The notes below the pieces were generated by a model. The model saw only the letters and a program-made list of their open reading frames with translations. It was not told the DNA's origin and searched no databases. The translations under genes were made by a program, and so were the position numbers. From Candidatus Woesearchaeota archaeon (GTDB taxonomy: Archaea > Nanobdellota > Nanobdellia > Woesearchaeales > UBA10216), in NCBI GenBank assembly GCA_016188145.1, contig JACPIJ010000060.1, positions 1-51,699 of the forward strand: a DNA stretch of 51,699 nt, written 5' to 3'. Shown here piece after piece: positions 1,594-36,904 of this stretch. Within the stretch, counting starts at the first letter, position 1; each line of letters starts with the position of its first letter.

Positions 1594-1624
1594 TTTTTGA
1601 TCAACCTTTTTCTTAAAAAGGTTG
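1594..1624 (-). repeat. hairpin + ATCAAAAAC element, short copy A
   Basis: Minus-strand reading: CAACCTTTTT-AAG-AAAAAGGTTG-ATCAAAAAC-CGAAT-ATG. A 10-bp stem lies between a TTTAAATA box (1640-1647) and the GT4 start codon. Confidence 0.8.
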
Positions 1625-5265: not shown

Positions 5266-5309
5266 ATAGCAAATCTCGGTAATTTTTGAACTTTTGCGAG
5301 ATTTGCTAT
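5266..5309. repeat. perfect 13-bp inverted repeat with an 18-nt loop
   Basis: ATAGCAAATCTCG (5266-5278) pairs with CGAGATTTGCTAT (5297-5309). It lies between the DUF2304 stop and the TIM-barrel gene start. Confidence 0.8.
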
Positions 5310-5325
5310 AATGCCAAGACTATTT

Positions 5326-5760
5326 TCACTTCTTCCGCTGCGTTTTCTGATTGACCTCTCCACGTCGTCTTTGGACGACGGGACCAGTCGTGCTTGCACG
5401 ACTTGGTTTCTTAAAGAGGTCATGCTGTGGTTCCTGCGCCCTTTCGAGTGCGAGCTGCCTAACGAGCTCTTCAAGGCCTTTCTGCGTTTTCCTGACAACG
5501 CGGTAGGAATAGAACGTAGCCGCTATGAGGAACATGAAGCCCAGTATTATGAAAAGGTCCAGCTTTCTTTCAAGCCTTAATGCAGCTGTTATTGGGTTGA
5601 TGACGTCGGGGAAAAGCGAGATTGCGCTGAATGACAGTGCAAACAGGCTCCAGAATGCCCACTCGTTTATTGTGAATTCCTTTTTCTTCCACTGGAGGAA
5701 GCTCATGTAGAGCATGAATGCGCCGAATACTATTCCGAAGACCTGTACGCCAAGCACCAT
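5326..5760 (-). CDS. DUF2304-family small membrane protein (usual GT2 partner) with an element-encoded C-terminal tail
   Basis: MVLGVQVFGIVFGAFMLYMSFLQWKKKEFTINEWAFWSLFALSF...FIILGFMFLIAATFYSYRVV fits DUF2304, and it lies directly downstream of a GT2 gene. The last ~30 codons are read straight through repeat copy E. Confidence 0.65.
   Translation of the reverse strand: MVLGVQVFGIVFGAFMLYMSFLQWKKKEFTINEWAFWSLFALSFSAISLFPDVINPITAALRLERKLDLFIILGFMFLIAATFYSYRVVRKTQKGLEELVRQLALERAQEPQHDLFKKPSRASTTGPVVQRRRGEVNQKTQRKK
5343..5422 (-). repeat. hairpin + ATCAAAAAC element, long copy E (carries a two-hairpin insert)
   Basis: Outer stem TGACCTCT/AGAGGTCA encloses CCACGTCGTC-TTTG-GACGACGGG and ACCAGTCGTGC-TT-GCACGACTTGGT. 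It is flanked by the (plus-strand) TTTTCTGAT motif. Confidence 0.85.
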
Positions 5761-5804
5761 GCATTATCGCCTTTTTCCTTCCCGTTTATATGTTTTTCTG
5801 TGGC

Positions 5805-6467
5805 TTACCTGGCTATTTTCCACCACAGCATCTTCAGCACGATGTTTACCCCGTCAAAGACTGTCGTGCCCTTGTACCTGTCTGCGTATATGGTTTTTAT
5901 TGGGAGCTGCGCGAATTTGAGCCTGTATTTTCCTGTTTTTGCAACTATCTCTGATTCTATGCTGTAGTCGTTCGACATGAGGCTCAGCTTTTCGTAAGCT
6001 GACCTGGTCAGGGCTTTGTAGCCGCACTGGGTGTCTTTCACGTTTATGTGGAATAGCAGCCTAATGACGGCGTCTATGAACCAGTTGCCAACCTTCTTCA
6101 CGATTGGCATGTTCTGGCTTCTCCTGTCCCGGTAGGTAAACACGATGTCGTTGCCTTTCAGCGCCTCAATCAGCCTTGGCAGGTCTTCCGGGTCGTGCTG
6201 CCCGTCGCTGTCCATGAAAACCAGCGCCTCGCAGCTTTTTCCGTAAGCATAGGTGCAGCCAGTCCTTAGGGCTGCTCCTTTCCCGAGGTTGATAATGTGC
6301 CTCAAAACAATCACGTCGTGCTTTTCTGCTACAGCTGCCGTGCCGTCCCTTGAGCCGTCGTCCACCGCGACTATTCTTTTGTTCGCAGCGAATTTCTTTG
6401 CTGCTTCAAGCACGTTGCCCAGGTTTCTTCCCTCGTTATGGGCGGGTATTATTACGTAGAAATCCAT
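5805..6467 (-). CDS. GT2 glycosyltransferase (dolichyl-phosphate hexose synthase-like)
   Basis: MDFYVIIPAHNEGRNL..., VAVDDGSRDGT and DSDGQHDPEDL (DXD) motifs. The ORF track extends it to 6551, but that would overlap the aglB stop. In-frame ATGs at 6509, 6494 and 6467 are all possible; 6467 gives the family-typical N-terminus. Confidence 0.85.
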   Translation of the reverse strand: MDFYVIIPAHNEGRNLGNVLEAAKKFAANKRIVAVDDGSRDGTAAVAEKHDVIVLRHIINLGKGAALRTGCTYAYGKSCEALVFMDSDGQHDPEDLPRLIEALKGNDIVFTYRDRRSQNMPIVKKVGNWFIDAVIRLLFHINVKDTQCGYKALTRSAYEKLSLMSNDYSIESEIVAKTGKYRLKFAQLPIKTIYADRYKGTTVFDGVNIVLKMLWWKIAR

Positions 6468-6532
6468 TTTTGAGTTCGTTTTTGCAGTTGCCATTTTGAC
6501 AATTTGCATTTTGCCGATCTTGCAGGATATGT

Positions 6533-9500
6533 TTACTCGAGCGTATCCCACTGTGCCTTGTATACGTACACGTTTGTTCCTGTCAGGCCGCGGTTGTGCG
6601 TGAGCAGCTTGAAGTGCTTGAGGCCCTTTCCTTCCATGAAAAACATCCTGGTGAACATCCCCGCTGCCTGCTCAGGGCTTGCCACGGCGGCATAATAACT
6701 GCTGTAGCTGTTACTGCTTCCAAGCCATTCTCCCTGGGGCACAAGTATCACTGAGAGCTGTTGCGGGACTGTGTCGTTTGCGTACGCCCTTTCCGCAAAT
6801 TCTTCCGTTCCTGTTTCGTTTGTCATGTATACAAATGAGATAGGATGCAAAACCTTTCCCTCTTGCGCGGGGAAATAGGCGTCGTTTGTGGTGAGGTTGA
6901 CTGTTAAGCCGTTGCCGCAACTCACAAGCTTGTCCTGCTCGTTTTCATTGCTGGCAAGTATTGCGCACCCGCTTACGTCTCCGGAGAAGCTTGGCCAGGG
7001 CGCTATCCAGCTATTCGCCTCGCGGTCATCCTTTATTCTTGCAATCTCATTGTATGTCGCCTTCGCCTTCTCTTCAGAATAGTTGAACATCTCCTTCATC
7101 GCAGTTACAGCTTCTTTTTGGCTTTTGCCTTTCAGGGTTTGCCATGCTATGCCTTTTTCGAAGTCCCAGCTTCCAAAATGCCCCCACACTCCGGATTTGC
7201 CTATCATGTCTTCTGACGCTATTACGTAGGCCTCCGGAGGTGTGCAGTGCGTGTACTTCAGCACGTTTTCTGCCTGACCTTGTGTCAGGTTGTAATCCAG
7301 AACCAGCAGTGTTTTTGCATCCTGCTTTAACGGAGTTGCCGTCAGCCTGTAAAGTATTTTTATAGTGGCGGCAAAGTCATTTTTTGCCTTATTCAGTTCG
7401 TCGAAGGCTATGGTGCTGCCGCAGTCAAGCATCCTCAGTATGCCTGCCGCTTCTGTCTCGTTTTTTGTCATGAAAAACTTCCCAACCCAGTGAGCAGGAG
7501 GATATTGCTGGGTTGTGCCGTCAAACGTAACCCTCCTGTCGGTTATGGACTTGAAGTGGTGCCCGAAGTCCCACCACGAGGTAATTATTGCATCAGGTTT
7601 GGAATCGTCCTGTATTGCAGTGAGTGAGCCGTACCACGCGTCATTAATTATTGGCACATCATTGTTGGCTATGGAGTAGGCTTTCTTTGTAACATCTGTT
7701 GAATAGGTTACTGTTGCCAGCATTACGAATACTGCTGTCGCAGCCGCAAACTTATTCAGCTTTAGGAAATTTTCGTTTATCCACATTAATAGCCTGAAGA
7801 TAAGCCCGAGCGTTGCGCCGAATCCAAGCCCCGCCATGGGAGCCAGCAGCAGCACGAATCTTATGCCTTTGGTGCTTGCGTAGATTGTGCCTGCAAACCA
7901 CACCACCACTAACGTTGCAAAGAATACCGAGTACAGCGCTTTTTCTTCTTTCGGCACTATCGCCTTTAGCTTGTTCTTGAGAAAGCCAAAGTTTGTTATT
8001 GCAACAGCGGTAAGCATTGCAGCGCTCAAAAATGAAAGCCAGAAGATGTTCGGCGTTATGCTGTTGACTACTTGGTCAAAGTTTCCTTCGTTAAGCTCGG
8101 CTACTGTCGTGAGCACGTTGGGCCAAAACGATGCGCCAACGACCGGACTTTTCAGCGTCTGCACGCCAAGTGCGAGCAGGGGCGTTTCCAGGAACTTGTT
8201 AAATCCCGTGAAGAGTGTTATGAGTGCTGCCGTCGAAAAGAAAAAGACCGCCGTCGGCATTATGAAACGCTTCCCAACGTTTCCTGCCAATATAAGCCTT
8301 AGCGTCTTGCCTAAACTCAGCTTGGTGCCTTCAACAAGCTGCGTGAATACGCTAACGGCAGCACCTGCCAGTATTGCTGCTGCCGCGGCACTGAGGATGA
8401 ATAGGAAAATAAACCACCACCCTCCCCAAGCCATGCTGTAAAGCGCTACTGAAAAACCGGCAAACAAGGCAAGCATAGTTCTCCATATAGCCCTATGCTC
8501 GTGGATTGCCTGCACGAACAGCCAGACTGAAAGCACGGCAAAAAAGATTACCACCTGGTCGTTATCGCCATGGATGGTCCTGTTGACGTAAGCCGCGTGC
8601 AGCGCAGCCATCAGGGCTCCAAAGAATCCTCCTACGGTGCCGGCAATTTTCCTTCCTATCAGGAATATTAGCAGCGCTGTTAGGCTTGTAAAAAGTACAG
8701 AGTATATCATGGTCTGGACTTCCCAAAGCGTTACGGAGTGGTTGAAGAACCTTACAAACTTGTAAAGGTATGCGATAAAATATGGAAAGAAGTAGTCCTG
8801 GGGTGAAATCTCTCTCCCAAGCGGCGCAACCTGATGGTTGTCCCATTCCAGTCCGTTCCTTATTTCATCCCCAATGTGGCCTTTTTCAACTATGTTCAGG
8901 GCATACCTGTTCCAGTAGTAAGGGTCAATGTCCGGCGAGTAGGGTCTGCCTTCCTCATCCCTGTAGAAATCCTTTATGAACTCTGAAGTGCTTTTTATCT
9001 GGCTGCTGACGTCAATCTGCTGCCCTGCATACTGACCTGTTTTGAAAATGTATGTTTTGCTGCTCCTTGCCTTGTTCATCTCATCAGCCAAAATCTGGCT
9101 TTTTCTCTTGTCAGGAAGGTTTGGGTACTGTGCGTTTATTGCGCCCTGTATGTCATTTTGCATGGTATTGTAAACAGAGTTGCTCGCCCAGTCCTCAGCG
9201 AAACGCAGCTGCGACGGCTGCGTCCTGACATCGGCAGTTAAGCCAATAACTATCAGAATTCCTAAAATTGGTAGTATGACAGAGCCCTTTTTTCTTAAAA
9301 ATTCGGCAATGGAATTGAAGTCCAGTGAGACCTCGTCCCCTTCAGTCACACCATGCGGTTTTTCTCCTTTTTCCTTTTCTTTTCCTTCCCTCTTGACTCT
9401 GAAAAGTCCCTTAATGCCGGAAGCCAGCCTCCCAATATCTATTTCAGCTTCTTCCCCTTCCTTTTTTCCTTCTGCTTCTGCGCTGCGGCTGCCGTGGTGC

Positions 9501-9697
9501 TCTGTTCTGTGTTCACTCTTTGCGGCTGCAGGTGATTCGCTTGCTTTTTTTTTAAAGAACGAGAGAACCTTGCCGAAGTTAAAGTTTATCTCAATGTCTT
9601 TCTCGTCTTTTTCTTCCGGGTGGGCGTCCCTTACTACCTCTTTGCCTTCCCCGAAGCCCTTTTCTTTTGCGTGCTCGTCTTTCCTGTCTTCAGCCAT
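6533..9697 (-). CDS. aglB: archaeal oligosaccharyltransferase AglB (STT3 family) with a long charged N-terminal extension
   Basis: 1054 aa. A multi-TM N-terminal half is followed by the catalytic WWDFG variant of WWDYG (ITSWWDFGHHFKS) and a large soluble C-terminal domain. About 140 Lys/Glu-rich residues precede the first TM helix. Confidence 0.9.
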   Translation of the reverse strand: MAEDRKDEHAKEKGFGEGKEVVRDAHPEEKDEKDIEINFNFGKVLSFFKKKASESPAAAKSEHRTEHHGSRSAEAEGKKEGEEAEIDIGRLASGIKGLFRVKREGKEKEKGEKPHGVTEGDEVSLDFNSIAEFLRKKGSVILPILGILIVIGLTADVRTQPSQLRFAEDWASNSVYNTMQNDIQGAINAQYPNLPDKRKSQILADEMNKARSSKTYIFKTGQYAGQQIDVSSQIKSTSEFIKDFYRDEEGRPYSPDIDPYYWNRYALNIVEKGHIGDEIRNGLEWDNHQVAPLGREISPQDYFFPYFIAYLYKFVRFFNHSVTLWEVQTMIYSVLFTSLTALLIFLIGRKIAGTVGGFFGALMAALHAAYVNRTIHGDNDQVVIFFAVLSVWLFVQAIHEHRAIWRTMLALFAGFSVALYSMAWGGWWFIFLFILSAAAAAILAGAAVSVFTQLVEGTKLSLGKTLRLILAGNVGKRFIMPTAVFFFSTAALITLFTGFNKFLETPLLALGVQTLKSPVVGASFWPNVLTTVAELNEGNFDQVVNSITPNIFWLSFLSAAMLTAVAITNFGFLKNKLKAIVPKEEKALYSVFFATLVVVWFAGTIYASTKGIRFVLLLAPMAGLGFGATLGLIFRLLMWINENFLKLNKFAAATAVFVMLATVTYSTDVTKKAYSIANNDVPIINDAWYGSLTAIQDDSKPDAIITSWWDFGHHFKSITDRRVTFDGTTQQYPPAHWVGKFFMTKNETEAAGILRMLDCGSTIAFDELNKAKNDFAATIKILYRLTATPLKQDAKTLLVLDYNLTQGQAENVLKYTHCTPPEAYVIASEDMIGKSGVWGHFGSWDFEKGIAWQTLKGKSQKEAVTAMKEMFNYSEEKAKATYNEIARIKDDREANSWIAPWPSFSGDVSGCAILASNENEQDKLVSCGNGLTVNLTTNDAYFPAQEGKVLHPISFVYMTNETGTEEFAERAYANDTVPQQLSVILVPQGEWLGSSNSYSSYYAAVASPEQAAGMFTRMFFMEGKGLKHFKLLTHNRGLTGTNVYVYKAQWDTLE

Positions 9698-9774
9698 GAA
9701 TCTGCCCCGTCAAACCCGGTGATGCAAGCTACTGCGGCAACTCAGGGCGTATTTAAATGTGTTGCGGATTTTTG

Positions 9775-9854
9775 TTTTTTGATTGACCTTTCCACATCGT
9801 CTTTTGACGATGGGACCCGTCGTGCTTGCACGACGTGGTTTAGAAAAAAGGTCA
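9775..9854 (-). repeat. hairpin + ATCAAAAAC element, long copy D (carries a two-hairpin insert)
   Basis: Outer stem TGACCTTT/AAAGGTCA encloses CCACATCGTC-TTTT-GACGATGGG and ACCCGTCGTGC-TT-GCACGACGTGGT. The TGA stop of the reductase gene is part of the outer stem. Confidence 0.85.
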
Positions 9855-11087
9855 GAACCACGCTTTTTTAGCGAAGAGCAGCAGCTTTGGCTCTCTCATC
9901 AAAAGCTTGAGCGCAAATCTTGACGGCTGGTCGCGGTCGTAGCTTTCAAGAATAGCTTTGTTCTTTTCCCTGGCGAAAGTTTCAACAAGCCTGTTGTAAT
10001 CCTCGTTGCTGAACCTTTCCATTGCCTTTCTCATGAGGAGTGAGAGGTACAGGTCCATCCCCATTCTCTTCTTCCACAGCTTTTCATAATCGGCATTTTT
10101 CGTTATCGCCTCCGCCACCGCCTCTGCCCCGATCAGGCTTTGGTTTATCCCTCCGAGCGTTGGCGCTTTCACCATTGTTGCCGCATCCCCAACAAGCAGC
10201 ACCCTGCCGTCCTTTGTTTTTGACTTTAGCCTTGGGTCATACAGTGGTATTGGGCCGGCCTGCCTACCTGCTATCTTCTTCTCGTAATCCTTGCCGGCCA
10301 CAGCTGTCAGGAACCGCTTGAAGTATTGGCTGGCTTCTTTTTTCGCGGCAATACCCACTCTTGCAATTTTCTCATTCTCGGGCACAACCCAGGCTATGCC
10401 TTCCTCGCTTGGGTAGAAGTCAATGATGTTATCGTTTTCAACCGGTATGGTTGCCTGCAGCCCGACGTAGAACTGCCTGTTTCCAAACAAGCCCGCAGAT
10501 TTTGCAACCGCGCTTATGGGCCCGTCAGCACCAACCAAATAATTGGCTTCGACGGTTTTTGTTTCGTTTTTTATTTTGTCTTTCACAGCAACCATTACTT
10601 TTCTCGTTTCCCAATTCGCTTTCGAGCGAATGGGCCCAATCGGGCTCTTCCCGATTTGTGTTTCTTTTTCACTGCCGCTGCCGCCATTATTGCCATCTTC
10701 AAACGTTTCAAACGTGTGGTTGGCAAAGAATTTTGCCCCTGCGTCTTTAGCCAATTCAGAAATGTGCCTGTCAAGCCCTGCCCTGTCTATAATAATGTCG
10801 TTCTTCAGCTTGACCTCAACAAATTCCTTATTTGGCGCAATTATCCTCGCCTTTGCAATCCTGTTGACAATTAATTCCTTCGGCAATTGCAGCCGTTGTG
10901 AAAGGACATCGCCGGTTATGACCCCTGTGCAGGCTACCGGTTCCCCTATCGTTCCATGCTCCTCAAACACCCGCACGTCCATCCCTGCTTTCGCAAGAAG
11001 GTAGGCTGAAAATCCGCCAGCTGGCCCTGCGCCAGCAATCGCTATTTTTTTGCTTTCCATATTTCCATCTCCGTTGCTGCCATGCAC
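9852..11087 (-). CDS. geranylgeranyl reductase family FAD-dependent oxidoreductase
   Basis: KIAIAGAGPAGGFSAYLLAKAGMDVRVFEE (GxGxxG), GEPVACTGVI and LLVGDAA motifs. A Gly/Ser-rich insertion of about 50 aa is present. Confidence 0.85.
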   Translation of the reverse strand: MHGSNGDGNMESKKIAIAGAGPAGGFSAYLLAKAGMDVRVFEEHGTIGEPVACTGVITGDVLSQRLQLPKELIVNRIAKARIIAPNKEFVEVKLKNDIIIDRAGLDRHISELAKDAGAKFFANHTFETFEDGNNGGSGSEKETQIGKSPIGPIRSKANWETRKVMVAVKDKIKNETKTVEANYLVGADGPISAVAKSAGLFGNRQFYVGLQATIPVENDNIIDFYPSEEGIAWVVPENEKIARVGIAAKKEASQYFKRFLTAVAGKDYEKKIAGRQAGPIPLYDPRLKSKTKDGRVLLVGDAATMVKAPTLGGINQSLIGAEAVAEAITKNADYEKLWKKRMGMDLYLSLLMRKAMERFSNEDYNRLVETFAREKNKAILESYDRDQPSRFALKLLMREPKLLLFAKKAWF

Positions 11088-11236
11088 CGCATGCAGTTTT
11101 TAATTGTTGCTGCATTTGTTGCCGCGGCCATTACGGCCTGTCGTGTTTCTATTCTAAAGTAGCGTCACTTGCAAAAACTTTAAATAATAGGTCATCCTTC
11201 GGCGTTTTTAACAGCTGTTGCTGGGGGGTTCAAAAA

Positions 11237-11599
11237 ATGGCGTCGTTCAGGCTTTTCTTCATTTCAGCGGTTCTTCTTATTGCCATCATCTCGGTCTCGG
11301 CGAATGCTGCGGCAGCCGAAAAAGCAGTCAAAATCACCAAGGTTTCGGCAGTCCAGGACTCCGAAGCGCTCGTTATTGTAAGCCTTGACTCGCAAAGGAA
11401 AAACACCGGTTCAAAGGTAACGGTTTCTGTTCCTGAGCTTGGATTAAGGGCCAGCCGCAATGTTGACTTTGCCAAGACAAACAAAAAGACAGTCCACCTT
11501 GAGATTCCTTCGCCAGACATGTTCGACCCCTACGTCAGGATAGTTTTTAGCAGCGACGGCGGCAAGAGGGTCAAGCACAGGCCGTTAATCCTGCAATAA
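11237..11599 (+). CDS. small secreted protein, single CARDB-like beta-sandwich module
   Basis: Signal peptide MASFRLFFISAVLLIAIISVSANAAAAE. The segment VSVPELGLRASRNVDF parallels VSIPELGVTATPDFVDEL in the next gene. Confidence 0.55.
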   Translation: MASFRLFFISAVLLIAIISVSANAAAAEKAVKITKVSAVQDSEALVIVSLDSQRKNTGSKVTVSVPELGLRASRNVDFAKTNKKTVHLEIPSPDMFDPYVRIVFSSDGGKRVKHRPLILQ

Positions 11600-11629
11600 T
11601 TTGACACCACTATATTTGACACCACTATA
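11600..11629. repeat. perfect tandem duplication of the 15-mer TTTGACACCACTATA
   Basis: Unit 1 is 11600-11614 and unit 2 is 11615-11629. It starts immediately after the TAA stop at 11597-11599. Confidence 0.9.
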
Positions 11630-11765
11630 TAATAGATAACAAAAGTAACTACTCTTATATGCTAAAATAGCGAAATGTTTATATAGAAGCTTCGTTTATC
11701 GGAGAAAGCATAACGCATAATTTTGTGCTAATTCAGTAGGAAATGACAGTTGGGGTGGTTTGAAA

Positions 11766-13391
11766 ATGAATATGTCCAAGAGTGTGTTTGTTGTTCTTTT
11801 GATGTCGATTGTCAGCATGCTTGTTCTGGCTTCGTCAGCACTCGCTGCCGCTCCAAAGGTTTCTTTTTCCGGCGTTCCGTCAAATGTTGTTGCCGGAACC
11901 ACGTTTGATGTAACGGTTTCAGCCGCAAACGACACTACTGCAAATCAGTTCATGCAGGTGATTACAGTGGCAAGCGACCTTGGCTGGTCAGTTTCACCCC
12001 AGTCAGTCAACTGCGGCTCTGTGCTTTCATGTGTTGCCAAATTCACCGTAACAGTTCCTTCTGGCGCAACTGTCAACCAGAAGTCAAAGCTGACTGCGCA
12101 GGTAACTACGAGCACCAGCGAGTCCGGCTCTGCAATTTCAGGGGATACAGTAGTTTCAGGCGCTCCATCGCTCGGCAACGGGGTGCCTGTCAGTGTTGAT
12201 GCTGTTGAGGTTGATAACTTCGAGCTTTCCTCTTCAGACACAAATGTCCGCGACCTGGAAAGGGGCGAGGAGTTCACGCTTAAGGTCAAGCTTACAGCAC
12301 TGGCGAATGCCAAGGACGTTGAGATAAGGGCTTTCGTTACAGGATTTGAGTTTGCAAAGAGCGAGCCAATAAGCGACTCGACAAGCCCATTCGACGTTGA
12401 GAAGGGAGTCAGCTATGTTAAAACGTTAAAGCTCAGGCTGCCTGACAGGGTTCAGGAGGACACATACAGAATAAGGGTAGTGGTTGGCGGCAGAGACAAC
12501 GATGAGCTTGTCGAAAACTTCAGGATAAAGGTAACCCCGTCAGCCCACGAGGTTGTTATCAAGGACCTTAGCGTCAACCCTGAGGACGTTATCCAGGCCG
12601 GAAGGGCTGTCCTGGCGACTGTCAGGGTGAAGAACCTTGGCGATAAGACGGAAAGGGACGTCAAGATCAGGGTCAGCATTCCTGAACTCGGTGTTACGGC
12701 AACTCCGGACTTCGTGGATGAGCTGAAGTCAGAGGATTCCGCAACTTCAGAGGAGTTTTTCCTCAGGATTGACCCGTGCGCAAAGCCGGGAACTTACGAT
12801 GTCAAGGCCGAAGTCACCTTTGAAGAGGGCGACAAGACGGTAACTGCAAAAGAGCAACTGACTGTCACAAAAGGCCCATGCGAAGCTCCGGCAGGCCCTG
12901 CATCTGTCTCGGCAGGCGGCGTTAAGATAGCTTACAGCGCTGAGCCGCAGAATGTTGAGGCTGGCGGCGCGGCTGTTGCATACCCAATAACGATTGTGAA
13001 CGAGGGCTCGGAAACAAAGAGCTACAGCCTGTCTGTAGCCGGCTCTGACTGGGCAACTGTCAAGCTCAGCCCAGGCAACATGGTCACCGTGAAGGGCGGT
13101 GACAGCCAGACTGTTTACGTGTTTGTTTCAGCCAAGGCAGGAAGCTCCGGCGGGCAGACGTTCGTAGTCAGGATCAAGGACCAGGCAGGCGACGTTGTGA
13201 AAGAGCTTCCATTGTCTGCTAATGTTGTAGCAGCAGGCGCTGGTGGCGCAGGTGCTGCCAGCCTTGCCCAGCTGTTGCAGCTTGGCCTGATTGCCCTGAT
13301 AGTCGTGCTGGTCATAGTTGGACTGGTCATGGCCTTCAGGAGAATGAAGGGCCCGGGCGAGGGCGGGGAAGGAAGCCAGACTTACTACTAA
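11766..13391 (+). CDS. sequon-poor surface (S-layer-like) protein with CARDB-like repeats and a C-terminal TM anchor
   Basis: Signal peptide, repeated beta-sandwich-like modules, and C-terminal LGLIALIVVLVIVGLVMAFRRMK. GGGGTGG sits 7 nt upstream of the ATG at 11766 (the ORF track starts at TTG 11760). Only one mature N-X-S/T sequon by my scan. Confidence 0.7.
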   Translation: MNMSKSVFVVLLMSIVSMLVLASSALAAAPKVSFSGVPSNVVAGTTFDVTVSAANDTTANQFMQVITVASDLGWSVSPQSVNCGSVLSCVAKFTVTVPSGATVNQKSKLTAQVTTSTSESGSAISGDTVVSGAPSLGNGVPVSVDAVEVDNFELSSSDTNVRDLERGEEFTLKVKLTALANAKDVEIRAFVTGFEFAKSEPISDSTSPFDVEKGVSYVKTLKLRLPDRVQEDTYRIRVVVGGRDNDELVENFRIKVTPSAHEVVIKDLSVNPEDVIQAGRAVLATVRVKNLGDKTERDVKIRVSIPELGVTATPDFVDELKSEDSATSEEFFLRIDPCAKPGTYDVKAEVTFEEGDKTVTAKEQLTVTKGPCEAPAGPASVSAGGVKIAYSAEPQNVEAGGAAVAYPITIVNEGSETKSYSLSVAGSDWATVKLSPGNMVTVKGGDSQTVYVFVSAKAGSSGGQTFVVRIKDQAGDVVKELPLSANVVAAGAGGAGAASLAQLLQLGLIALIVVLVIVGLVMAFRRMKGPGEGGEGSQTYY

Positions 13392-13576
13392 GCCCTTTTC
13401 TTTTTTCTTTTCTTTATTTTCTCTTTTTATTTAGTTTCAAGCCAGTTTGAAAATTATAAACTGTTCCACCTGTTCCACAAAACCTTTAAATAATGGAACC
13501 TATTCTAAAGTAGTAACTGATTTTGTAGACTTTGGATTAAATTTTTTTTCGTAAAATGGTCATGGGGAGGACTTGG

Positions 13577-14803
13577 ATGAAACGTGCTAACACAGGCGTT
13601 TTTGCGGCATTCCTTCTTGTTTTCTTGTTTTTGTTAGTCACTGTTATCCCTCTTCTGCTGCTCCTCTTCTCTTACGGCTTTTTGCAACTACCTAAGCTGA
13701 CTTACTATAACATCACAATCGCAGCCACCACAGGGCTTTTCATTATTCCCGTTTTCCTTGTTTTCCTCGCAGCAGTCATTGCTCTAGCAGCGAAAAGAAA
13801 AGGGGCAGCCGTTGCTGCTGGCTTAAAACCAAGGCGGGAACCTGAGCCTTATCCCTGGGAAAGTGTCTTCGGGGCAGCAGGGAAGGAGGATTTCAAGGCA
13901 GTAAAGGTAACTGCGAAAACAGCTTTTACCAGTCCTAAACCTAGCGTAACTGTCCTGGCTGTTGCTGCCGTTATTGTGGCAGCGACTGTTGTTTTCTTTG
14001 TAATGGTGGTGCCAACAGCAAAGGACGTGTTCACAGGAGGTGGCAAAGGCTCAAATTTGACTGTCCTGGCGAACTTAAGCGCTGGCATCTCAGATAACGT
14101 CGTGAAAAATGAAAGCGCAAGCTCGCTTTTCCAGTTTTTTAAGGCAAAATTAAGTAATTTAAGAAAAACAAACATGACTGGCCTGGCAGAAGAGGCAAGG
14201 ATAGCCGAAGCAAAAAAGCTGGCTGAACTGGAAAAGGCAAAGCAAAAGCAGGAAAAGGAAGCAAAGCAGAAGGAACAAAAGGCTTCATCTTTTTCAGCTT
14301 TGGCAGCGAAATTCAATGCTGTTAAGGCTGCAGCAGTGAAGGTGTCTGCGTTTTGGCCTTATGCCCTTGCCGGGATTAGCATGCTGGTGATGCTTGCTGG
14401 TGGTTTTTATTTTTACAGGGCAAAAAAGGTTAAGCCCGCTGCGGAATGGGTCAGAACATGCGTGGCTGACTCTGCCGGCTGGCTTGCCGTGCTTTTTTCT
14501 GACGTGAAAAGAAACGGCCTGAAGCTTCTGATAATTGCAGCTGTGGTTTTGGCTGCAGCCTTGGCTTTCGTGTTCAGAAGCTGGCTTAAGGCCAAATTGC
14601 CGGCTTTTTCCAAAGTTGCCGTGCCTGTTCTTGCGGCTATCCGCGAATCAGCCATTAGCTTTTTTTACGCGGCAAGAAACTTTCTTCTGGCTTACAGGAT
14701 TTACATCCTGATTGGCATAGCTGTGCTTCTGGTGATTTTTGGGATTCTTTTTGTGCTTGAACGCAAAGGGAAAGAAGCAGGAACACCCAAATCAAAAACC
14801 TAG
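13577..14803 (+). CDS. hypothetical membrane protein with a Lys/Ala-rich coiled-coil segment
   Basis: Several TM helices flank AEEARIAEAKKLAELEKAKQKQEKEAKQKEQK. A GGGGAGG Shine-Dalgarno lies 7 nt upstream of the ATG at 13577 (the ORF track starts at 13556). Confidence 0.55.
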   Translation: MKRANTGVFAAFLLVFLFLLVTVIPLLLLLFSYGFLQLPKLTYYNITIAATTGLFIIPVFLVFLAAVIALAAKRKGAAVAAGLKPRREPEPYPWESVFGAAGKEDFKAVKVTAKTAFTSPKPSVTVLAVAAVIVAATVVFFVMVVPTAKDVFTGGGKGSNLTVLANLSAGISDNVVKNESASSLFQFFKAKLSNLRKTNMTGLAEEARIAEAKKLAELEKAKQKQEKEAKQKEQKASSFSALAAKFNAVKAAAVKVSAFWPYALAGISMLVMLAGGFYFYRAKKVKPAAEWVRTCVADSAGWLAVLFSDVKRNGLKLLIIAAVVLAAALAFVFRSWLKAKLPAFSKVAVPVLAAIRESAISFFYAARNFLLAYRIYILIGIAVLLVIFGILFVLERKGKEAGTPKSKT

Positions 14804-15954
14804 CCTGCAATGGCCTTGGCTGCAGTAATCACGGCATAGATTATCCCGAACAGGAACATAAATGCAAGAGCAATTGCCACAAGCCTTGGCATGTTGATTG
14901 CGTATTCCGGTTTTACCTCAGCCTTTTTCTTCTTCGCGGCAATATGCATTGCTACCAGCAGGATTCCTTCTATGCCGCCAGCCACTGCACCTGCAACTCC
15001 CAGCACGGCAATGAAGTTCTTCAAGCCGAGAAGGAAAGCCAGCAGGGGGATGAAGCATGTCAGTGCCCACGCGGTCTTCCTTTTAAGCCTGTAGTCATAA
15101 ACGTACATCTCCTTTAGCGCAAGCCCAAGTGCTATGAACGAAGTGCTCATTGCCAGCACTGCAAAAAGGTTTGCGAACAGAATCATTCTTTCCCCAAGCA
15201 TTTTGCCAATGGTTACAGTTGCCAGCTGGCCTGTTGCTGCGCCGCTTATTCCAACAACAGCCACAGCAAAGAGCGAATAAAGCACTATGGGCACAAGCCC
15301 TCCCAATATTATTGCCCTTTTGAGAAGCTTTCTGGCTTTTCCGCTTCCGAGCTCTTCCCTCATTTCTGGTATGGCAACCGCTCCCAGAAAGGCAAATAGC
15401 ACGACACCATACGGCACAAACAGGTTTTGTATGCTTGTTCCAGTGAAGTTCGCCGCAGAGAACCTGCCTGAGTTTGCAGCGACTACTATTATAATAGATA
15501 TAACGGCAATGGTTAAAAAAGACAGCAGCAGCTCGGATTCCTCAACAGCCTTCAGCCCGAAGTATACTATTGCCGAGGCAGCTGCAAAAAAGATAATGCT
15601 CCAGAAAAATGGCGTGAGCTGGGGGTTTATGGCGTTAAGGGCATTCCCCGCTCCTATAATGTAGGCGAGCAGGGCTCCGTAGATGCCAAAAACCATTGCA
15701 AGCGCCATGAGCCTCTTGCCATTCTTGCCAAGATATTTTTCCGCATAGCCTGTCAGCTGGTGGTTTCCTTTGGTTCTAAGCACCACCTCCCCAAGCAGCA
15801 GGTTGACCAGCATCACGGCAGCGCCTATTATAATAATGTGCAGCAGCCCAACAGCCAAGCCTGACTTGGCAACAACATATGGTATGCCCAGCACACCGGC
15901 TCCGATTGTGGTGCCGACAAGCGTTGCGACTGCCTCAAGGAACCTCTTTTTCAT
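14800..15954 (-). CDS. amino acid permease (Trp/Tyr permease / AAAP-like family)
   Basis: 384 aa with about 11 TM helices. The N-terminus EAVATLVGTTIGAGVLGIPYVVAKSG is typical of this transporter family. Confidence 0.75.
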   Translation of the reverse strand: MKKRFLEAVATLVGTTIGAGVLGIPYVVAKSGLAVGLLHIIIIGAAVMLVNLLLGEVVLRTKGNHQLTGYAEKYLGKNGKRLMALAMVFGIYGALLAYIIGAGNALNAINPQLTPFFWSIIFFAAASAIVYFGLKAVEESELLLSFLTIAVISIIIVVAANSGRFSAANFTGTSIQNLFVPYGVVLFAFLGAVAIPEMREELGSGKARKLLKRAIILGGLVPIVLYSLFAVAVVGISGAATGQLATVTIGKMLGERMILFANLFAVLAMSTSFIALGLALKEMYVYDYRLKRKTAWALTCFIPLLAFLLGLKNFIAVLGVAGAVAGGIEGILLVAMHIAAKKKKAEVKPEYAINMPRLVAIALAFMFLFGIIYAVITAAKAIAG

Positions 15955-15977
15955 ACATTATTACCCGCATCTAAACA

Positions 15978-15985
15978 TTTAAATA
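15978..15985. promoter_or_regulatory. shared, near-palindromic TATA box (TTTAAATA) for the divergent permease gene and tRNA-Trp
   Basis: It lies 24 nt from the permease ATG (15954) and 26 nt from the tRNA 5' end (16012). TTTAAATA-type boxes recur about 25 nt upstream of many starts in the window. Confidence 0.6.
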
Positions 15986-16011
15986 TGTTGCTGCAAAGCC
16001 TTAAATCCTGT

Positions 16012-16231
16012 GGGGATGTAGTATAAACACCCGCGGCTCTTGAGTAGTGCTGCGGGATGGTACAGCCCGGCATTATGGGGGCCTCCAGCGATTGGAGAAC
16101 TGAGCCAACGGCAAACCGAAGGCGATGACCGACCCATAGTAGAAAGCCTCGGATCTGGGTTCAAATGACCTTTTTTTTGCGAAAAATGTCAATCAAAAAA
16201 CGCAAGAAGGCTGAAGGTCCCAGCATCCCCA
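16012..16231 (+). tRNA. tRNA-Trp(CCA) interrupted by three introns (D-arm, canonical 37/38, T-loop)
   Basis: Exons 16012-16024, 16064-16088, 16145-16166 and 16219-16231 join to a 73-nt cloverleaf: GGGGAUG-UA-GUAU-AGCCCGGCA-UUAU-G-GGGGC-CUCCAGA-GCCUC-GGAU-CUGGG-UUCAAAU-CCCAG-CAUCCCC-A. The acceptor stem is a perfect 7 bp and the T-stem a perfect 5 bp. The D-loop has A14, G18G19 and A21. A TATA box lies upstream and a T7 run downstream. The first intron boundary is ambiguous between 9/10 and 13/14 because of the GTAT/GTAC duplication. Confidence 0.8.
16166..16200 (+). repeat. hairpin + ATCAAAAAC element, copy F, inside the tRNA-Trp T-loop intron
   Basis: TGACCTTTTTTTTGCGAAAAATGTCAATCAAAAAACG aligns with the minus strand of copy C (TGACCTTTTTAGAAAAAAGGTCAATCAAAAACG). 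The similarity continues into CGCAAGAAGG versus CGAATAAGG. Confidence 0.7.
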
Positions 16232-16282
16232 CCTTTTTTTCCAAAAAGCTTATATAGTGCTTTTGCCTTTACAAAGTTCAGC

Positions 16283-16414
16283 ATGAAAACAGTAACGGTA
16301 TCAGAAGAGGAGTACAAACGTTTGAAAGAGAAGGAGAAGGTAGATTCCGAAATCCTAGAGGACATAGCACGAGGAGTTAAAGACATATTGACTGGCAAGG
16401 TCAAGGAGATTTAA
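16283..16414 (+). CDS. 43-aa antitoxin-like mini-protein
   Basis: My translation: MKTVTVSEEEYKRLKEKEKVDSEILEDIARGVKDILTGKVKEI. A CTTATATAG box lies about 25 nt upstream. It is too short for the ORF track. Confidence 0.35.
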   Translation: MKTVTVSEEEYKRLKEKEKVDSEILEDIARGVKDILTGKVKEI

Positions 16415-17429: not shown

Positions 17430-20400
17430 TTGTCTTTTAACGCGAAGTCGCTTAAGCCGCTTTTTTCACAGAAAAAGGGAACCATTTACAGCCTTGTTCT
17501 GCTGATTGCCGTAGCGGTAATGGTTGTAGGCATATTGTCGGTTAATGCTTTAAACGCAAGAAATGTTACAATAACTCCCAAGTGGGTGGGTTCTAGTTTC
17601 AATCAGTCCTTTAACATTACTGTTAGCAATGTTGCTGGCAGTGCTGTAATCAATGTAGTCAGGATTACTAAACCAAACGATTTTGTCGACATATACTGTA
17701 TTAACCCCGTGACTACGGGGTGGACTTGCGCAACCAACGGCACGAAACAAGGGTTTGTGTATGTGGAATTCACAGGCGGCACCATAGCTGCTGGCGCTTC
17801 TGACAGCTTTAACATTACCTCAACCGCTGCCAGTGCTGCCGGTGATTACACGTTTCAGTTGAGGACAGAGGATGACGCTGCCGCTATTAACTCAACCAAT
17901 CTCAACAACAACGTTTCTGTCGACACACGTCCTCCACTGCTTGTTTTGATGAACGTTTCTGACGGCACCAGAATCCTTAGCAGCGGGGAGCACCTTAATG
18001 GCTCGCTTTTCCTGAGCAACTCCACTGGCAGGGTTACCATACTGTTTAACGCAACCGACAACGAGTCGTCAGTGCACTCTGTAACGCTTTACTACAACGC
18101 CACAAATAGCACGTCAATTTCTGAAGATGTTATCTTAAAGCCTAACCACCAAACAGCAGGCACTTATGATTTGGCATATGCAATGTCCAACTTATCATTC
18201 GGGCCTGGCTCTTTGTGGAACGCAACGCTTGATGGCGGCAACATCCTCAACGGCACAAGGATATTCTTCACAGTTGTTGCCAACGACACGGTAAGAAACG
18301 GCAACGTGAGCAACTCCACCTACTGGCCGAATTCTGGCACGGCTTACAATTTTACTATAGACTCGGCTGCCCCAAGGTTTGAGGACGTTCAGGTTTTAAA
18401 CGCCAGTCAGCTTACCACCAACACGGCAGGCAATGCCATTAACACCACTAAGACGTTTGGCAGCCTTGGCGGGCTTGAGTACATAATAAACAGCAGCCTG
18501 CTGCTTAACGTCAGCGCCCTCGTCAGCGATGGCGGAGGCTCAGGCGTTGTGCGTGTCCAGATTATGAACAGGACAGGCAACTTTGTGGACATGAACCCGA
18601 TTACCGGCACGAATGGCTCAAGTGGCCAGACAACGTGGAACCTCTCGCTCTACAACATAACCGACCTGGGGCAGCGCGTTGGCGGCTTCAATGGCGATGG
18701 GTTATACAACCTCAGCTTCAGGACAACCGATAATGTCAGCAACGTCGTCAATAATAACTTCACCGTTGAGGTTGACGACGCCCCGCCAACAGGCTCTGTT
18801 TCCACAAACATAACAATTAATGGCAAGCTTTCAGAAGGCAATGTAACACTGGACATCTCTACAAACGCATCCTTCAACATCAGCCTTAAGACAACCAATA
18901 ACATAAACAACATTACAAGGAACGTGAGCGTGTTTGGCAACAGAGGGCTGGTGTACAACTTCACTTTCGGCAGCGGAACGACTTCAGGCACTTCAGTCTG
19001 GAACCTGACCCTGTTAAACGACTCATTGGTTAACCTGAGCAACTTCTGCGACGCAAGCACGGGCTTTACGGCTGCTGACGGCTCGCAGTGTAACCTCCAA
19101 TTCAACTTCTCAGACGTCCTTGGAAGGATGAACAGCTCAATAAACCTGACAATAGCTGTTGACGGGGTTGCGCCAAACGTTTCGATAATCAGCCCTGTTT
19201 CCCTTACAACTAACTATACCGGTACAGTCCTGATTAACGCCTCAGTGAACGATTCTGTCGGGCCATTAAGGAACGTCTCGTTCAGGTGGAGGATGAACTC
19301 GTCAACAATTACTGACGGTGACGAAGGCCTTAATGCGAGCAACTGGATGCCCCTCAGTTTGACATCAGGCACCAACAGCCAGTTCAACGCTCGCGGCTAC
19401 TGGTCAGCCACGCTCACAATCAGCAGCTTGACTGACACGAATTACAGCATAGAAATCAACGCAACCGACAGCGGCGCAAGGCAGAACACTACGACAAATG
19501 TTTCGAATGTCATATTTGACTCTACAATTCCGCAGAACATCACCATAGTTGCGCCCGGCTCGAACAGCTTCCTCAGGGTTAACTTCACAGTTGGCATAAA
19601 CGCCACCGAGAGGATATCGGGGCTGCGCAACGTGAGCGTAAGGCTTGAAAACGCAACCCATACTTCTCCGTGGGTTGGGATGAATCAGGAGATTGTTGCC
19701 CTTTCATCTGTTACTACCATTGCCACAACTGCAAAATACAACGCATCCAGGTTTAACCTCACCCATGTTGGTGAGCAGGCCATGAACGCAAGCAATGGCA
19801 ACTTCACCTTGCGGCTTAACGTCACAGACACGGCAGGCAACCAGAACACCACTGTAACGATAAACTTCACAATAGACACGGTTCTGCCCACGAATATAAC
19901 GGTAATACAGCCGTTAACCGGCATAAACAGGACAGGCAACTTCACCATTAACCTCTCGGTTAATGAGTCAAACATTGATACTGTCTGGTTCAGGTGGGTT
20001 AATGACAGCAGCGGCGCTACAGCGGGCCATAGGGGGCCATGGGTGCCAATGACTCAAGGCACTGTCGGCATGTTCAACAGCACCTTTATCAACCTGACCG
20101 TTGCTCCGGTATTGCTTGATGGCAACTACAGCATAGAGTTTAACGTTACCGACAGGGCGGGCAACCAGAACGCCTCCACGCTGCTCAACAGCACTCCCTT
20201 TGCCCAGCTTGTCCTTGACAGTAATGCCCCGCTGATTATTGCTACCGGCTCCCTTGCTGGCAACACCTCAAACCTGACCGGCAACTTTTTTGTTAACCTC
20301 ACGATAAACGACACCAGCACATGGAACATGACCGTTGGCAAGCTTACTACCAGAAACATTAACGCCTCAGCGTTCAGGCTTGAGAACACAACGTTTAACA

Positions 20401-21647
20401 GCAGCTGGCTCAACATGGATTTCGCAACCAATGACATGACAAACGCAGACTCCAACAGGACCAACGCTACCTTCACGTTCAGCTCTGTGCCAAACGGGCT
20501 TTACAACATAAGGTTCATGGTTAACGACACAGCAGGAAACCAGAACAACACAGTCCAGGTCAGCAACGTTATGCTTGACAACGTTGCGCCAAGCGTTGCA
20601 ATGTCTGTAAGCAACCTAAGCCCGAGCCCGACTGGAGGAAGCGGTATTTCCGGCAGTTTGTCATTCAATGTTACCATAACAGACAACCTGCCGGTTAACA
20701 TCAGCATCGGAAACACGAACAGCACGCAGGGCAACAGGTTCGGCGTGTTCTACCGCTTTGTGAGCGCTTCACTCACAACATCGTGGCTGCCGATGAACAC
20801 TACATCGTTCTCAGAGTCAATAACAGCGCCGCACAAGGTCGTGTTTAACGCCACCAACGGCACCTCAGCGCTGGCTGACGGCGATTACCAGCTGCAGATT
20901 AACGCAACAGACTCGGCAAACAACCAGAACGCTACAGTGTATGTTGACGTTACATTGCAGAATGGCGGCAGCCGTGTGCAGGCCAAGAACCTGACCTTCT
21001 TTGAGGGCATTTGGAATGGCTTTGCCAACAGCAGCACAGACACCTACACGTTCCTGATGAACACCACTGCAAACGCGACTTGCAGATACTCGCTCGACAC
21101 GTCAGCAACCGACTATGACGCTATGACCAGCACTATGACTAACAACGTCAGCAGGGAGCACAGAATCGCCTTCGGTCCACGCAGGGATGTTGGAGCTTCA
21201 GGCCATACATTATACTATGCCTGCAAGGATGTTTCTGGCAACTTCACAGCTGCTGGAGGAGCAGCGAGCCAGTTCCCCTTCGGCATTGACACCAGGAGCC
21301 GTTGGAATGTTACAATCCCGGGAAAGACCGACAGCAAGTGGCCAAACTACTTCCAGGCAGCAGCTGGCGGCAGCGCTAATGGCTGGTCAAGCTTTGTGCT
21401 TTCAACAGGACAGTTGGCAGACACTACTTTAGTCAGTCCGGGAACATATAACGTGACTTCTGTGCTGTCCTCGCTGCTGAGCGGAACCGCAGCAGGCAAC
21501 TTCACCAGAATATATGCTTACACTGCCAGCAGTGACTCGTGGGTGAGTTTCAGGGTAGGGCAGACAGGCAATACATTTATCAACTTTACCAACCAGACAA
21601 CATACTGGCTTAACGTTACAACCGTTGAAAGGCTGGAGATAAACTAA
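17430..21647 (+). CDS. giant secreted/anchored glycoprotein, about 10 Ig-like (DxAGN-type, Big_5/SbsA-like) repeats, sequon-saturated
   Basis: 1405 aa. Repeated modules end in DTAGNQNTT / DRAGNQNAS / DTAGNQNNT / DSANNQNAT followed by V-x-D-x-x-x-P. I hand-counted about 110 N-X-S/T sequons. The N-terminus SQKKG-TIYSLVLLIAVAVMVVGILSV resembles an archaeal class III signal. TTG start, with GAGGTG 10 nt upstream. Confidence 0.8.
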   Translation: MSFNAKSLKPLFSQKKGTIYSLVLLIAVAVMVVGILSVNALNARNVTITPKWVGSSFNQSFNITVSNVAGSAVINVVRITKPNDFVDIYCINPVTTGWTCATNGTKQGFVYVEFTGGTIAAGASDSFNITSTAASAAGDYTFQLRTEDDAAAINSTNLNNNVSVDTRPPLLVLMNVSDGTRILSSGEHLNGSLFLSNSTGRVTILFNATDNESSVHSVTLYYNATNSTSISEDVILKPNHQTAGTYDLAYAMSNLSFGPGSLWNATLDGGNILNGTRIFFTVVANDTVRNGNVSNSTYWPNSGTAYNFTIDSAAPRFEDVQVLNASQLTTNTAGNAINTTKTFGSLGGLEYIINSSLLLNVSALVSDGGGSGVVRVQIMNRTGNFVDMNPITGTNGSSGQTTWNLSLYNITDLGQRVGGFNGDGLYNLSFRTTDNVSNVVNNNFTVEVDDAPPTGSVSTNITINGKLSEGNVTLDISTNASFNISLKTTNNINNITRNVSVFGNRGLVYNFTFGSGTTSGTSVWNLTLLNDSLVNLSNFCDASTGFTAADGSQCNLQFNFSDVLGRMNSSINLTIAVDGVAPNVSIISPVSLTTNYTGTVLINASVNDSVGPLRNVSFRWRMNSSTITDGDEGLNASNWMPLSLTSGTNSQFNARGYWSATLTISSLTDTNYSIEINATDSGARQNTTTNVSNVIFDSTIPQNITIVAPGSNSFLRVNFTVGINATERISGLRNVSVRLENATHTSPWVGMNQEIVALSSVTTIATTAKYNASRFNLTHVGEQAMNASNGNFTLRLNVTDTAGNQNTTVTINFTIDTVLPTNITVIQPLTGINRTGNFTINLSVNESNIDTVWFRWVNDSSGATAGHRGPWVPMTQGTVGMFNSTFINLTVAPVLLDGNYSIEFNVTDRAGNQNASTLLNSTPFAQLVLDSNAPLIIATGSLAGNTSNLTGNFFVNLTINDTSTWNMTVGKLTTRNINASAFRLENTTFNSSWLNMDFATNDMTNADSNRTNATFTFSSVPNGLYNIRFMVNDTAGNQNNTVQVSNVMLDNVAPSVAMSVSNLSPSPTGGSGISGSLSFNVTITDNLPVNISIGNTNSTQGNRFGVFYRFVSASLTTSWLPMNTTSFSESITAPHKVVFNATNGTSALADGDYQLQINATDSANNQNATVYVDVTLQNGGSRVQAKNLTFFEGIWNGFANSSTDTYTFLMNTTANATCRYSLDTSATDYDAMTSTMTNNVSREHRIAFGPRRDVGASGHTLYYACKDVSGNFTAAGGAASQFPFGIDTRSRWNVTIPGKTDSKWPNYFQAAAGGSANGWSSFVLSTGQLADTTLVSPGTYNVTSVLSSLLSGTAAGNFTRIYAYTASSDSWVSFRVGQTGNTFINFTNQTTYWLNVTTVERLEIN

Positions 21648-21693
21648 AAATATAAATAATAGCTTCTATCTTTGGCATAGTAGGGGAATCTGC

Positions 21694-23364: not shown

Positions 23365-23468
23365 CCTTTCCTTTGTGCCGTTTTCGGCACTTAAGTGCCA
23401 CAATTGGAACATTATAAACAACTTTTCCTGTATAACTTTATAAATCCCCGCTTGCACTTAATTTTAAG

Positions 23469-36895: not shown

Positions 36896-36904
36896 TCCTT
36901 AAAT

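Follow-up and report, generated by a model that had tools for sequence, protein, structure and literature searches.

We analysed a 51,699-nucleotide contig of a Candidatus Woesearchaeota archaeon (JACPIJ010000060.1, assembly GCA_016188145.1; hereafter the window) in which an element of about 80 nt occurs twice, and which a sequence-only reading had taken to encode a three-helix structure selected as a folded RNA or a cruciform DNA. We propose, with a probability of roughly 70%, that the element consists of two palindromic DNA repeats of a short, interspersed kind, one nested within the other, that belong to Candidatus Woesearchaeota (DPANN), and that it is mobile DNA and not an RNA of the host. 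We will refer to the outer palindrome as E1 and to the inner pair of hairpins as E2, and to E1 copies with and without E2 as filled and empty respectively. The element is composite, its parts are present at some orthologous sites and absent from others, E2 lies in-frame within genes and is flanked by no target duplication, each of its hairpins covaries, and Watson-Crick pairing is symmetrical between the strands. E2 is best read as a new archaeal family of mobile repeats of the REP, RPE and double-hairpin type.

A repeat finder returns the two copies as one 81-nt direct-repeat family in the window, at 5342-5422 (copy B) and 9774-9854 (copy A) with 86% identity, and a 28-nt core pattern matches only at these two window sites (0.00 expected from 100 shuffles). 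Both copies, on either strand, fold as an 8-bp outer stem around two hairpins with a minimum free energy of -35.8 to -39.2 kcal/mol (z = -5.1 to -6.6; 0 of 200 shuffles as stable), which reproduces the fold and the positions given earlier. The statement that every stem difference between the copies is compensated also holds, for all three of them (outer stem T:A/C:G, hairpin 1 A:T/G:C, hairpin 2 C:G/A:T), and the remaining differences lie in loops or in the junction. The transcription needs a small correction, in that copy A ends in TTAGAAA-AAAGGTCA (15 nt, 9840-9854), one A fewer than had been written, and copy B in TTCTTAA-AGAGGTCA, one A more; it is otherwise accurate. Three features were absent from the earlier account: the repeat is 10 nt longer (GTTTT[T/C]TGAT), the outer stem occurs alone elsewhere in the window, and the inner hairpin pair occurs alone at 10610-10660. 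The parts of the two copies are as follows, R2 being a covariance model of the E2 module only.

9774-9783, plus strand: copy A, E1 tail GTTTTTTGAT; minus strand (gene sense) ATCAAAAAAC; common to all E1 copies, empty or filled
9784-9791, plus strand: copy A, E1 outer stem, 5' arm TGACCTTT; pairs with 9847-9854 in the minimum free energy fold; in empty E1 copies the arm runs on as T5-T6
9792-9839, plus strand: copy A, E2 double-hairpin module, 48 nt; R2 match at 9788-9842, 37.2 bits, E = 1.7e-07
About 9792-9814, plus strand: copy A, hairpin 1, CC-A-CATCGTC/GACGATG-GG
About 9815-9839, plus strand: copy A, hairpin 2, ACC-CGTCGTGC/GCACGACG-T-GGT
9840-9846, plus strand: copy A, junction TTAGAAA, remnant of the E1 T-run, loop and A-run
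9847-9854, plus strand: copy A, E1 outer stem, 3' arm AAAGGTCA; 9852-9854 is the complement of the reductase TGA stop
5342-5359, plus strand: copy B, E1 tail GTTTTCTGAT and outer stem, 5' arm TGACCTCT
5360-5407, plus strand: copy B, E2 double-hairpin module, 48 nt; R2 match at 5356-5411, 44.6 bits; the orthologous site in locus L131 (7266-7300) is an empty E1
5408-5422, plus strand: copy B, junction TTCTTAA and outer stem, 3' arm AGAGGTCA

Since the outer stem and the hairpin pair each occur alone, and are present or absent at orthologous sites, we no longer regard the 80-mer as a single functional three-helix RNA of the host. E2 is a 48-52-nt module of two abutting hairpins, each an inverted version of the other, built as CCC-A-stem-loop-stem-GGG followed by CCC-stem-loop-stem-T-GGG; on the strand with flanking T-runs the consensus reads TTT-CCC-A-AGTCG..loop..CGACT-GGG and then CCC-AGTCG..loop..CGACT-T-GGG-TTT. 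Because the second hairpin inverts the first, the pattern is identical on both strands. Each hairpin has 9-11 bp with one bulged base and paired CCC/GGG feet between the T-runs, and the module has terminal inverted repeats CCCAAGTCG/CGACTTGGG. To find relatives we used reductase homologues, which led to nine syntenic loci from other Woesearchaeota. [quoted passage not shown] Neither E2 nor E1 with E2 (units of 48-81 nt) has an open reading frame (ORF) of its own. E2 without E1 is present in L009, L131, L132, L133, L134, L136, L138, L140 and L142, and in the window as

10610-10660, plus strand: copy C, stand-alone E2, 51 nt, no outer stem; R2 match at 10607-10664, 69.4 bits, E = 1.6e-15

Copy C is situated in-frame inside the gene for an FAD-dependent (geranylgeranyl-type) reductase (9852-11087, minus strand), where it is translated as ..TQIGKSPIGPIRSKAN...

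E1 in turn is a palindrome of about 33 nt, common where genes begin or end, with a TTTTTGAT/GTTTTTTGAT tail and the arms TGACCTTTTT-NNN-AAAAAGGTCA. Its stem variants are also compensated (TGACC/GGTCA, CAACC/GGTTG, AAACC/GGTTT). Empty copies are found in L005, L009, L131, L133, L134, L137, L138 and L142, and at four places in the window:

1594-1624, plus strand: empty E1 TTTTTGAT-CAACCTTTTT-CTT-AAAAAGGTTG; the tail abuts the ATG of a GT4 glycosyltransferase gene (start 1587, minus strand), with a TATA-like TTTAAATA upstream; ortholog at L131 8745-8792
38802-38833, plus strand: empty E1, AAACC.../...GGTTT variant, directly upstream of a metallophosphoesterase start (38796, minus strand)
41635-41665, plus strand: empty E1 TTTTTGAT-TGACCTTTTTT-CTA-AAAAGGTCA
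16166-16201, minus strand: empty E1 in opposite orientation (plus strand TGACCTTTTTTTTGCGAAAAATGTCAATCAAAAAAC), directly after a conserved 210-nt non-coding stretch

Adding 48 nt inside the T-run of the 5' arm turns an empty E1 into a filled one. Thus L008 reads TGACCTTT[48]TTTCTAAAAAGGTCA where the window at 41643 reads TGACCTTTTTTCTAAAAAGGTCA, and copy A from which 9792-9839 is removed becomes TGACCTTT+TTAGAAAAAAGGTCA, the form of an empty E1. The 7-nt junction of the filled copies is accordingly the remnant of the E1 loop and stem.

Full composites are not confined to the window; a genome scan found five more in Woesearchaeota metagenome-assembled genomes (MAGs), two of these in one MAG labelled as Methanosarcinales. 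That MAG ("uncultured Methanosarcinales archaeon"; L001 and L009, CAZBFZ01 contigs) carries E1, E1 with E2 and stand-alone E2, one such copy lying between the ribosomal protein genes S19 and L22. Either the MAG has been mislabelled or misbinned, or the family extends across phyla. A metagenome scan with a loose pattern gave one true copy among the matches listed, L047, which has a nested copy at 1901-2004 and tandem copies at 2607-2724, the rest being chance matches in high-GC contigs; viral contigs scanned for the element gave no match. The 190-aa ORF between the L047 modules, considered as the transposase of a REPtron, is a PIN_5 ribonuclease and not a Y1 transposase.

Comparison of orthologous sites provides further insight into how the composite arose. 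L131 is syntenic with the window over 0.4-11 kb, and at the site of copy B it has an empty E1 of 23 nt after DUF2304 (TGACCTTTTTTCTAAAAAGGTCA); the window has these 23 nt plus exactly 48 nt, with no target duplication. The GT4 glycosyltransferase gene of L131 contains a 51-nt module, CTGCAGAA[51 nt]AAATTAT, and its six orthologues including that of the window are uninterrupted, with CTGCAG(A/C)A joined directly to (A/G)AATTAT, or close variants, and nothing duplicated. Filled and empty sites therefore differ by the exact length of the module, 48 nt for copy B and 51 nt for GT4. At the site of copy A, L132, L134, L137 and L142 pass straight from the reductase TGA to the promoter of AglB (AAATCCGCAAC..TTTAAATA), the window holds the 81-nt unit in between, and L133 has an E1 in the opposite orientation. 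In these alignments E2 lands in oligo-T or oligo-A runs without detectable target duplication; a homopolymer target could conceal a duplication of 1-2 nt only if the ancestral run was shorter. E1 itself is an insertion relative to some relatives.

The reductase-AglB spacer is also a hot spot for other palindromic inserts. In L136 (11150-11340) there is a unit of about 190 nt in which an outer stem GCCAGTTGCG/CGCAACTGGC surrounds three hairpins, the 220-nt stretch around it folding at -91.6 kcal/mol; in L138 (6350-6470) the spacer has two unrelated palindromes. In L137 (4926-5015) the insert is in-frame with the N-terminal region of AglB, and its E1-type outer stem surrounds two hairpins that are not related to E2.

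At least six different proteins carry E2 in-frame. For any one of them the insert is confined to one or two genomes, the other aligned orthologues (5-18 per gene) being without it. The coding inserts are

Reductase: window and L132
GT4 glycosyltransferase: L131
AglB, N-terminal region: L136 and L138
Membrane protein of about 400 aa: L134 and L138
82-aa protein: L138
DUF2304, C-terminus: window

In the reductase the insert adds 51 nt to a variable loop; of 20 aligned homologues P0001 and P0003 have it, and the other 18, the closest included, do not. All three frames are translated in one gene or another (..IGP.., ..LGPV.., ..DWAQS..), and 122 of 138 six-frame readings of E2 (88%) are free of stops compared with 61.5% expected. 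Genes tolerate the module because it keeps the reading frame, being a multiple of three in length, and has almost no stops in any of the six frames. The reductase-borne module is identical between the window and L132 at 49 of 51 positions (96%), against 75% for the rest of the gene (p ~1e-4, binomial estimate), which indicates recent acquisition or conversion, or a constraint on the element at the nucleotide level. The orientation of the coding copies we do not use as evidence: the A-run is on the sense strand in 8 of 8, and the sense strands offer 144 runs of A>=5 but 55 of T>=5, so that the supply of targets could account for the bias (p ~0.07).

Some ORFs run through E1 or E1 with E2 (window 5326-5760, minus strand; L131 6935-7315; L008 7082-7510) and share tails such as ..HDLF(K/R)KP..VNQKT.., because the repeats lack a stop in that frame. 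Such element-derived tails give rise to false tblastn "homology" between unrelated proteins, and the apparent synteny of copy B with L008 and L001 was rejected on these grounds, the matches being translations of the element and not orthologous genes. The earlier placement of both copies at gene 3' ends is thereby only partly borne out. It is right for copy A, where the TGA at 9854-9852 is the stop of the ORF 9852-11087 (minus strand) and lies in the outer stem as had been noted; it is loose for copy B, which the DUF2304 ORF (5326-5760, minus strand) reads straight through.

Covariation shows what is conserved within E2. Standard pairs make up 96.7% of the two-hairpin fold in an alignment of 43 rows. 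Both partners have changed in 14 of the 18 pairs, and the covariation score is 0.380, a value that none of 500 shuffles reaches (shuffle score 0.085); all slid controls collapse. This alignment was fitted to the model, which favours structure, but the effect is very large and is also visible in raw MAFFT alignments. A long hairpin of the REPIN type (arm1:arm4, arm2:arm3) is rejected, with 87.1% paired against 85.0% and a covariation of 0.090 against 0.081 in shuffles, 86 of 500 of which reach the score of the long hairpin. The stems differ freely as long as they remain complementary (CATCGTC, AGTCGAC, ATTCGC, AATCGGG and others). The sequence-only reading was thus correct that base-pairing and not a peptide is conserved, as seen both from the covariation of the hairpins and from the reading of the module in all three frames inside genes. 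The 457 pair cells at the 26 loci comprise 437 Watson-Crick, 4 G:T, 4 A:C and 12 other combinations, and the covariance model scores on both strands. As G:T is as rare as A:C and pairing is equal on both strands, the constraint is that of a DNA palindrome and not of selection on a one-strand RNA.

These data bear directly on the alternative that the three-way junction is a cis-acting RNA of the host, placed in 3'-untranslated or intergenic regions as a terminator, mRNA stabiliser or protein-binding platform. It would account for the positions of copies A and B, each of which comes after a coding region on the sense strand and starts with TGACC and a T6 run, the archaeal termination signal, and it would be consistent with their very stable folds, with the strong covariation, with the E1 behind the conserved non-coding stretch at 16166, and with retention of E1 at the DUF2304 boundary in L131, L133, L134 and L138. 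We nevertheless consider such an RNA quite unlikely, as at least six unrelated coding regions contain the inner hairpins and no outer stem, these hairpins are missing at orthologous 3' ends of close relatives, E1 is inverted at the orthologous spacer in L133, and both strands score with no excess of G:U over A:C. Old copies also decay: an intergenic E2 that is intact in L133 (2542-2600, -30.2 kcal/mol) is decaying at the orthologous position in L142 (3778-3833, -13.3 kcal/mol). Rfam 15 gives no match at the gathering score over the whole window and none at E <= 1 over 5300-16400 (there is a chance IRES_Bip match elsewhere), which rules out the hammerhead and other known ribozymes and riboswitches, in agreement with the earlier failure to recognise a known RNA family. 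An archaeal bulge-helix-bulge intron, with two 3-nt bulges and a 4-bp helix between them, was likewise rejected; the folds show single-base bulges only, and the copies in coding regions keep the frame and have no stops, as translated sequence would. The alternatives raised earlier, cruciform DNA or a MITE, thus come nearer the truth than the RNA, except that the MITE had been envisaged as having no conservation of structure; what we find is a MITE-like element strongly conserved in structure.

The outer part may be of a different nature. On the gene-sense strand E1 presents TGACC and then oligo-T (T5-T8), right after stop codons and after the conserved non-coding stretch, its tail (ATCAAAAAAC on that strand) abuts start codons in at least six cases, and it is kept at the DUF2304 boundary in the four relatives named above. 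E1 is most likely an oligo-T terminator and spacer module with a host role, judging from where it lies. It resembles archaeal oligo-T intrinsic termination signals in having a sense-strand T5-T8 run directly after a stop codon or a conserved non-coding 3' end, but differs from them in that it is a palindrome, repeated and conserved in sequence, whose 10-nt tail is fixed, and in that it is found in both orientations and also inside ORF ends.

The non-coding stretch that precedes one E1 (window 15956-16168, plus strand, about 210 nt) lies between an amino-acid permease gene and a DUF192 gene, with a ATTTAAATA box in front and the E1 palindrome with a T8 run directly behind. It is 94% identical to L138 and 75-91% to five other relatives, more conserved than the coding DNA of the reductase (75%, window versus L132), and folds at -61.8 kcal/mol. 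It contains a T-loop-like GGGTTCAAAT and is a candidate unannotated non-coding RNA; ARAGORN and Rfam (E <= 1) give no match to it.

Another possibility is that the repeats are binding sites in double-stranded DNA, that is operators or nucleoid or topology sites for a dimeric protein. E1 and E2 are both palindromic, E1 separates a TATA-like box from the start codon in front of two genes, a position suited to a repressor, and bacterial REPs have been hypothesized to take part in the supercoiling of DNA, the termination of transcription and the stabilization of mRNA (PMC3733652). However, the stems vary freely if complementary, which a sequence-specific duplex binder would not tolerate, and the copies in coding regions and those in decay argue against a regulon; we regard this explanation as very improbable.

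A plausible model for mobile E2 is as follows. E2 would be non-autonomous mobile DNA that enters oligo-T or oligo-A runs, including the T-run of the E1 arm, and insertion into that arm would produce the apparent three-way junction. The sense-strand T-run stays intact when E2 inserts, which may explain why E1 is tolerated as a target. Propagation of E2 itself would depend on the hairpins, including the one-base bulge and the G/C foot that they conserve, and for this reason the stems would remain compensated while copies that no longer move decay. We infer that E2 adopts its hairpins in single-stranded DNA, where a protein supplied in trans recognises them. A tentative candidate for the mover is an HUH tyrosine transposase like those of IS200/IS605 or RAYT, none of which we found in the DNA examined, because imperfect hairpins, one extrahelical base, absence of duplication and a strand-specific short target are features that IS200/IS605 and RAYT use.

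The same mobile element could in principle be moved otherwise, by way of an RNA intermediate or by recombination or gene conversion between copies. The lack of a target-site duplication and of a transposase nearby would fit this, conversion or transfer would fit the reductase module being 96% identical where host genes are 75% identical, and for the hairpin elements of Allomyces, which have no flanking duplication, an RNA-mediated mode has been suggested for that reason (PMC2800124). On the other hand we saw no reverse transcriptase in the 229 kb examined, the strand-symmetric pairing and conserved single-base bulges fit recognition of a DNA hairpin, and IS200/IS605 is the most widespread insertion sequence family in Archaea (PMC13343696). 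Taken together, movement by RNA or recombination seems unlikely to us. That E2 is an active transposon-like element of an undescribed archaeal type, mobilised in trans by a dedicated, unrecognised DPANN enzyme, is possible though doubtful; if so, it would be the first partnership like that of REPIN and RAYT in Archaea or a new mechanism, and a steady source of peptide insertions and terminator remodelling in very small genomes.

Among known mobile repeats, the closest in form are the bacterial REP, BIME and REPIN sequences moved by RAYT, a Y1 transposase like that of IS200/IS605. Like E2 they are short imperfect palindromes arranged as inverted dimers, in which each hairpin measures about 23-26 nt and one unpaired base is conserved (PMC3733652); they occur in many copies, mostly at gene boundaries and also inside ORFs, and their stems vary by compensated changes (PMC3733652; PMC3116915). 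They carry a conserved unpaired GTAG (or CGTC) tag at one end of the palindrome (PMC3733652), whereas E2 has no GTAG, and CGTC only in the paired stems of some copies. Unlike them, E2 has an archaeal host and its hairpins abut without a spacer, and although its doublet is inverted like that of a REPIN, the covariation supports two separate hairpins and not a long one. Rickettsia palindromic elements (RPE) are similarly palindromic selfish DNA found in-frame in unrelated housekeeping genes, to which they add a tolerated peptide (PMC10969869), but they are bacterial and about 100-150 bp long, against 48-52 nt and use of all three frames for E2; the likeness meant here is one of behaviour. The mitochondrial double-hairpin elements, GC clusters and repetitive hairpin-forming elements of Allomyces, yeasts and sponges are also tiny, with one or two hairpins, and lie in spacers, variable rRNA regions and occasionally protein genes, with differences between close relatives. 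The name "double-hairpin element" reportedly goes back to Paquin et al. in 2000. These belong to organelle genomes of eukaryotes, and homology to E2 is not expected.

The MITEs derived from IS200/IS605 (PATEs) resemble E2 in being non-autonomous, without an ORF and with hairpin ends. Insertion without duplication, 3' of a short specific target of 4-5 nt, is a hallmark of IS200/IS605, and E2 has a T-run target on one strand and no duplication. The hairpins at IS200/IS605 ends, however, have the same orientation on one strand where those of E2 are mutually inverted, and neither TnpA nor a parent element was found in the window or the fetched loci. Classical MITEs make target-site duplications, of which none is seen for E2; terminal inverted repeats such as theirs are present in E1 (TGACCTTT/AAAGGTCA) as well as in E2. 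E2 is therefore not a demonstrable member of the REPINs, RPE, mitochondrial double-hairpin elements or IS200/IS605-type MITEs, and we found no description of it in the literature searched.

Several observations weigh against the proposal that E2 is mobile DNA and E1 with E2 two nested repeats. Intramolecular template switching could yield part of the compensation without selection. The module at the reductase site is shared by the window and L132 and absent from L131, a closer relative, which needs precise loss or repeated or converted insertion. In 10 of 10 composites E2 has the same position and orientation in E1, and the 81-nt unit may accordingly spread as a whole, or the arrangement may be selected. 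The conservation of E1 at orthologous gene boundaries suggests some host function of the outer part. The case for movement is comparative throughout, drawn from genomes whose reductase proteins are 70-88% identical to that of the window. Finally, the window and fetched loci have no gene for a transposase or HUH endonuclease by Pfam and gene tables, and no single-copy RAYT/Y1 transposase gene flanked by repeats.

For the discovery of RNAs these results are a caution, as a repeated fold whose changes are perfectly compensated may owe them to selfish palindromic DNA just as readily as to a functional RNA. Three checks discriminate between the two, namely the balance of G:U and A:C, whether both strands match, and whether orthologous sites have or lack the element. 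E2 adds 16-19 residues to housekeeping proteins (AglB, the lipid reductase, glycosyltransferases) and enters a probable terminator palindrome, and is in this way a source of variation in protein length and gene boundaries, and of gene-calling errors, in the small gene-dense genomes of Woesearchaeota. The census mentioned above places a Woesearchaeal genome among the most MITE-dense of Archaea (PMC11602168), and the E2 family may be part of that signal. The moving enzyme, if found, would extend REP/RAYT-type biology to Archaea.

The genes of the window are archaeal (AglB/STT3, the geranylgeranyl-type FAD reductase, glycosyltransferases), and have promoters with TTTAAATA boxes. A low-GC island at 36000-38000 (GC 0.35 against ~0.48 elsewhere), with a Fic/DOC-family gene at 35939-36895 and ORFs that have no Pfam match, is possibly foreign DNA. 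Three very large ORFs (1405, 1278 and 1268 aa) at 17430-27305 and 31020-34826 have internal repeats of about 320-380 nt and Gly/Ser-rich GGN tracts; these probably encode surface proteins, homologues at syntenic loci being annotated with faint Big_3/Big_13 matches. A gene for a MazF/PemK-type toxin lies at 49874-50245 on the minus strand.

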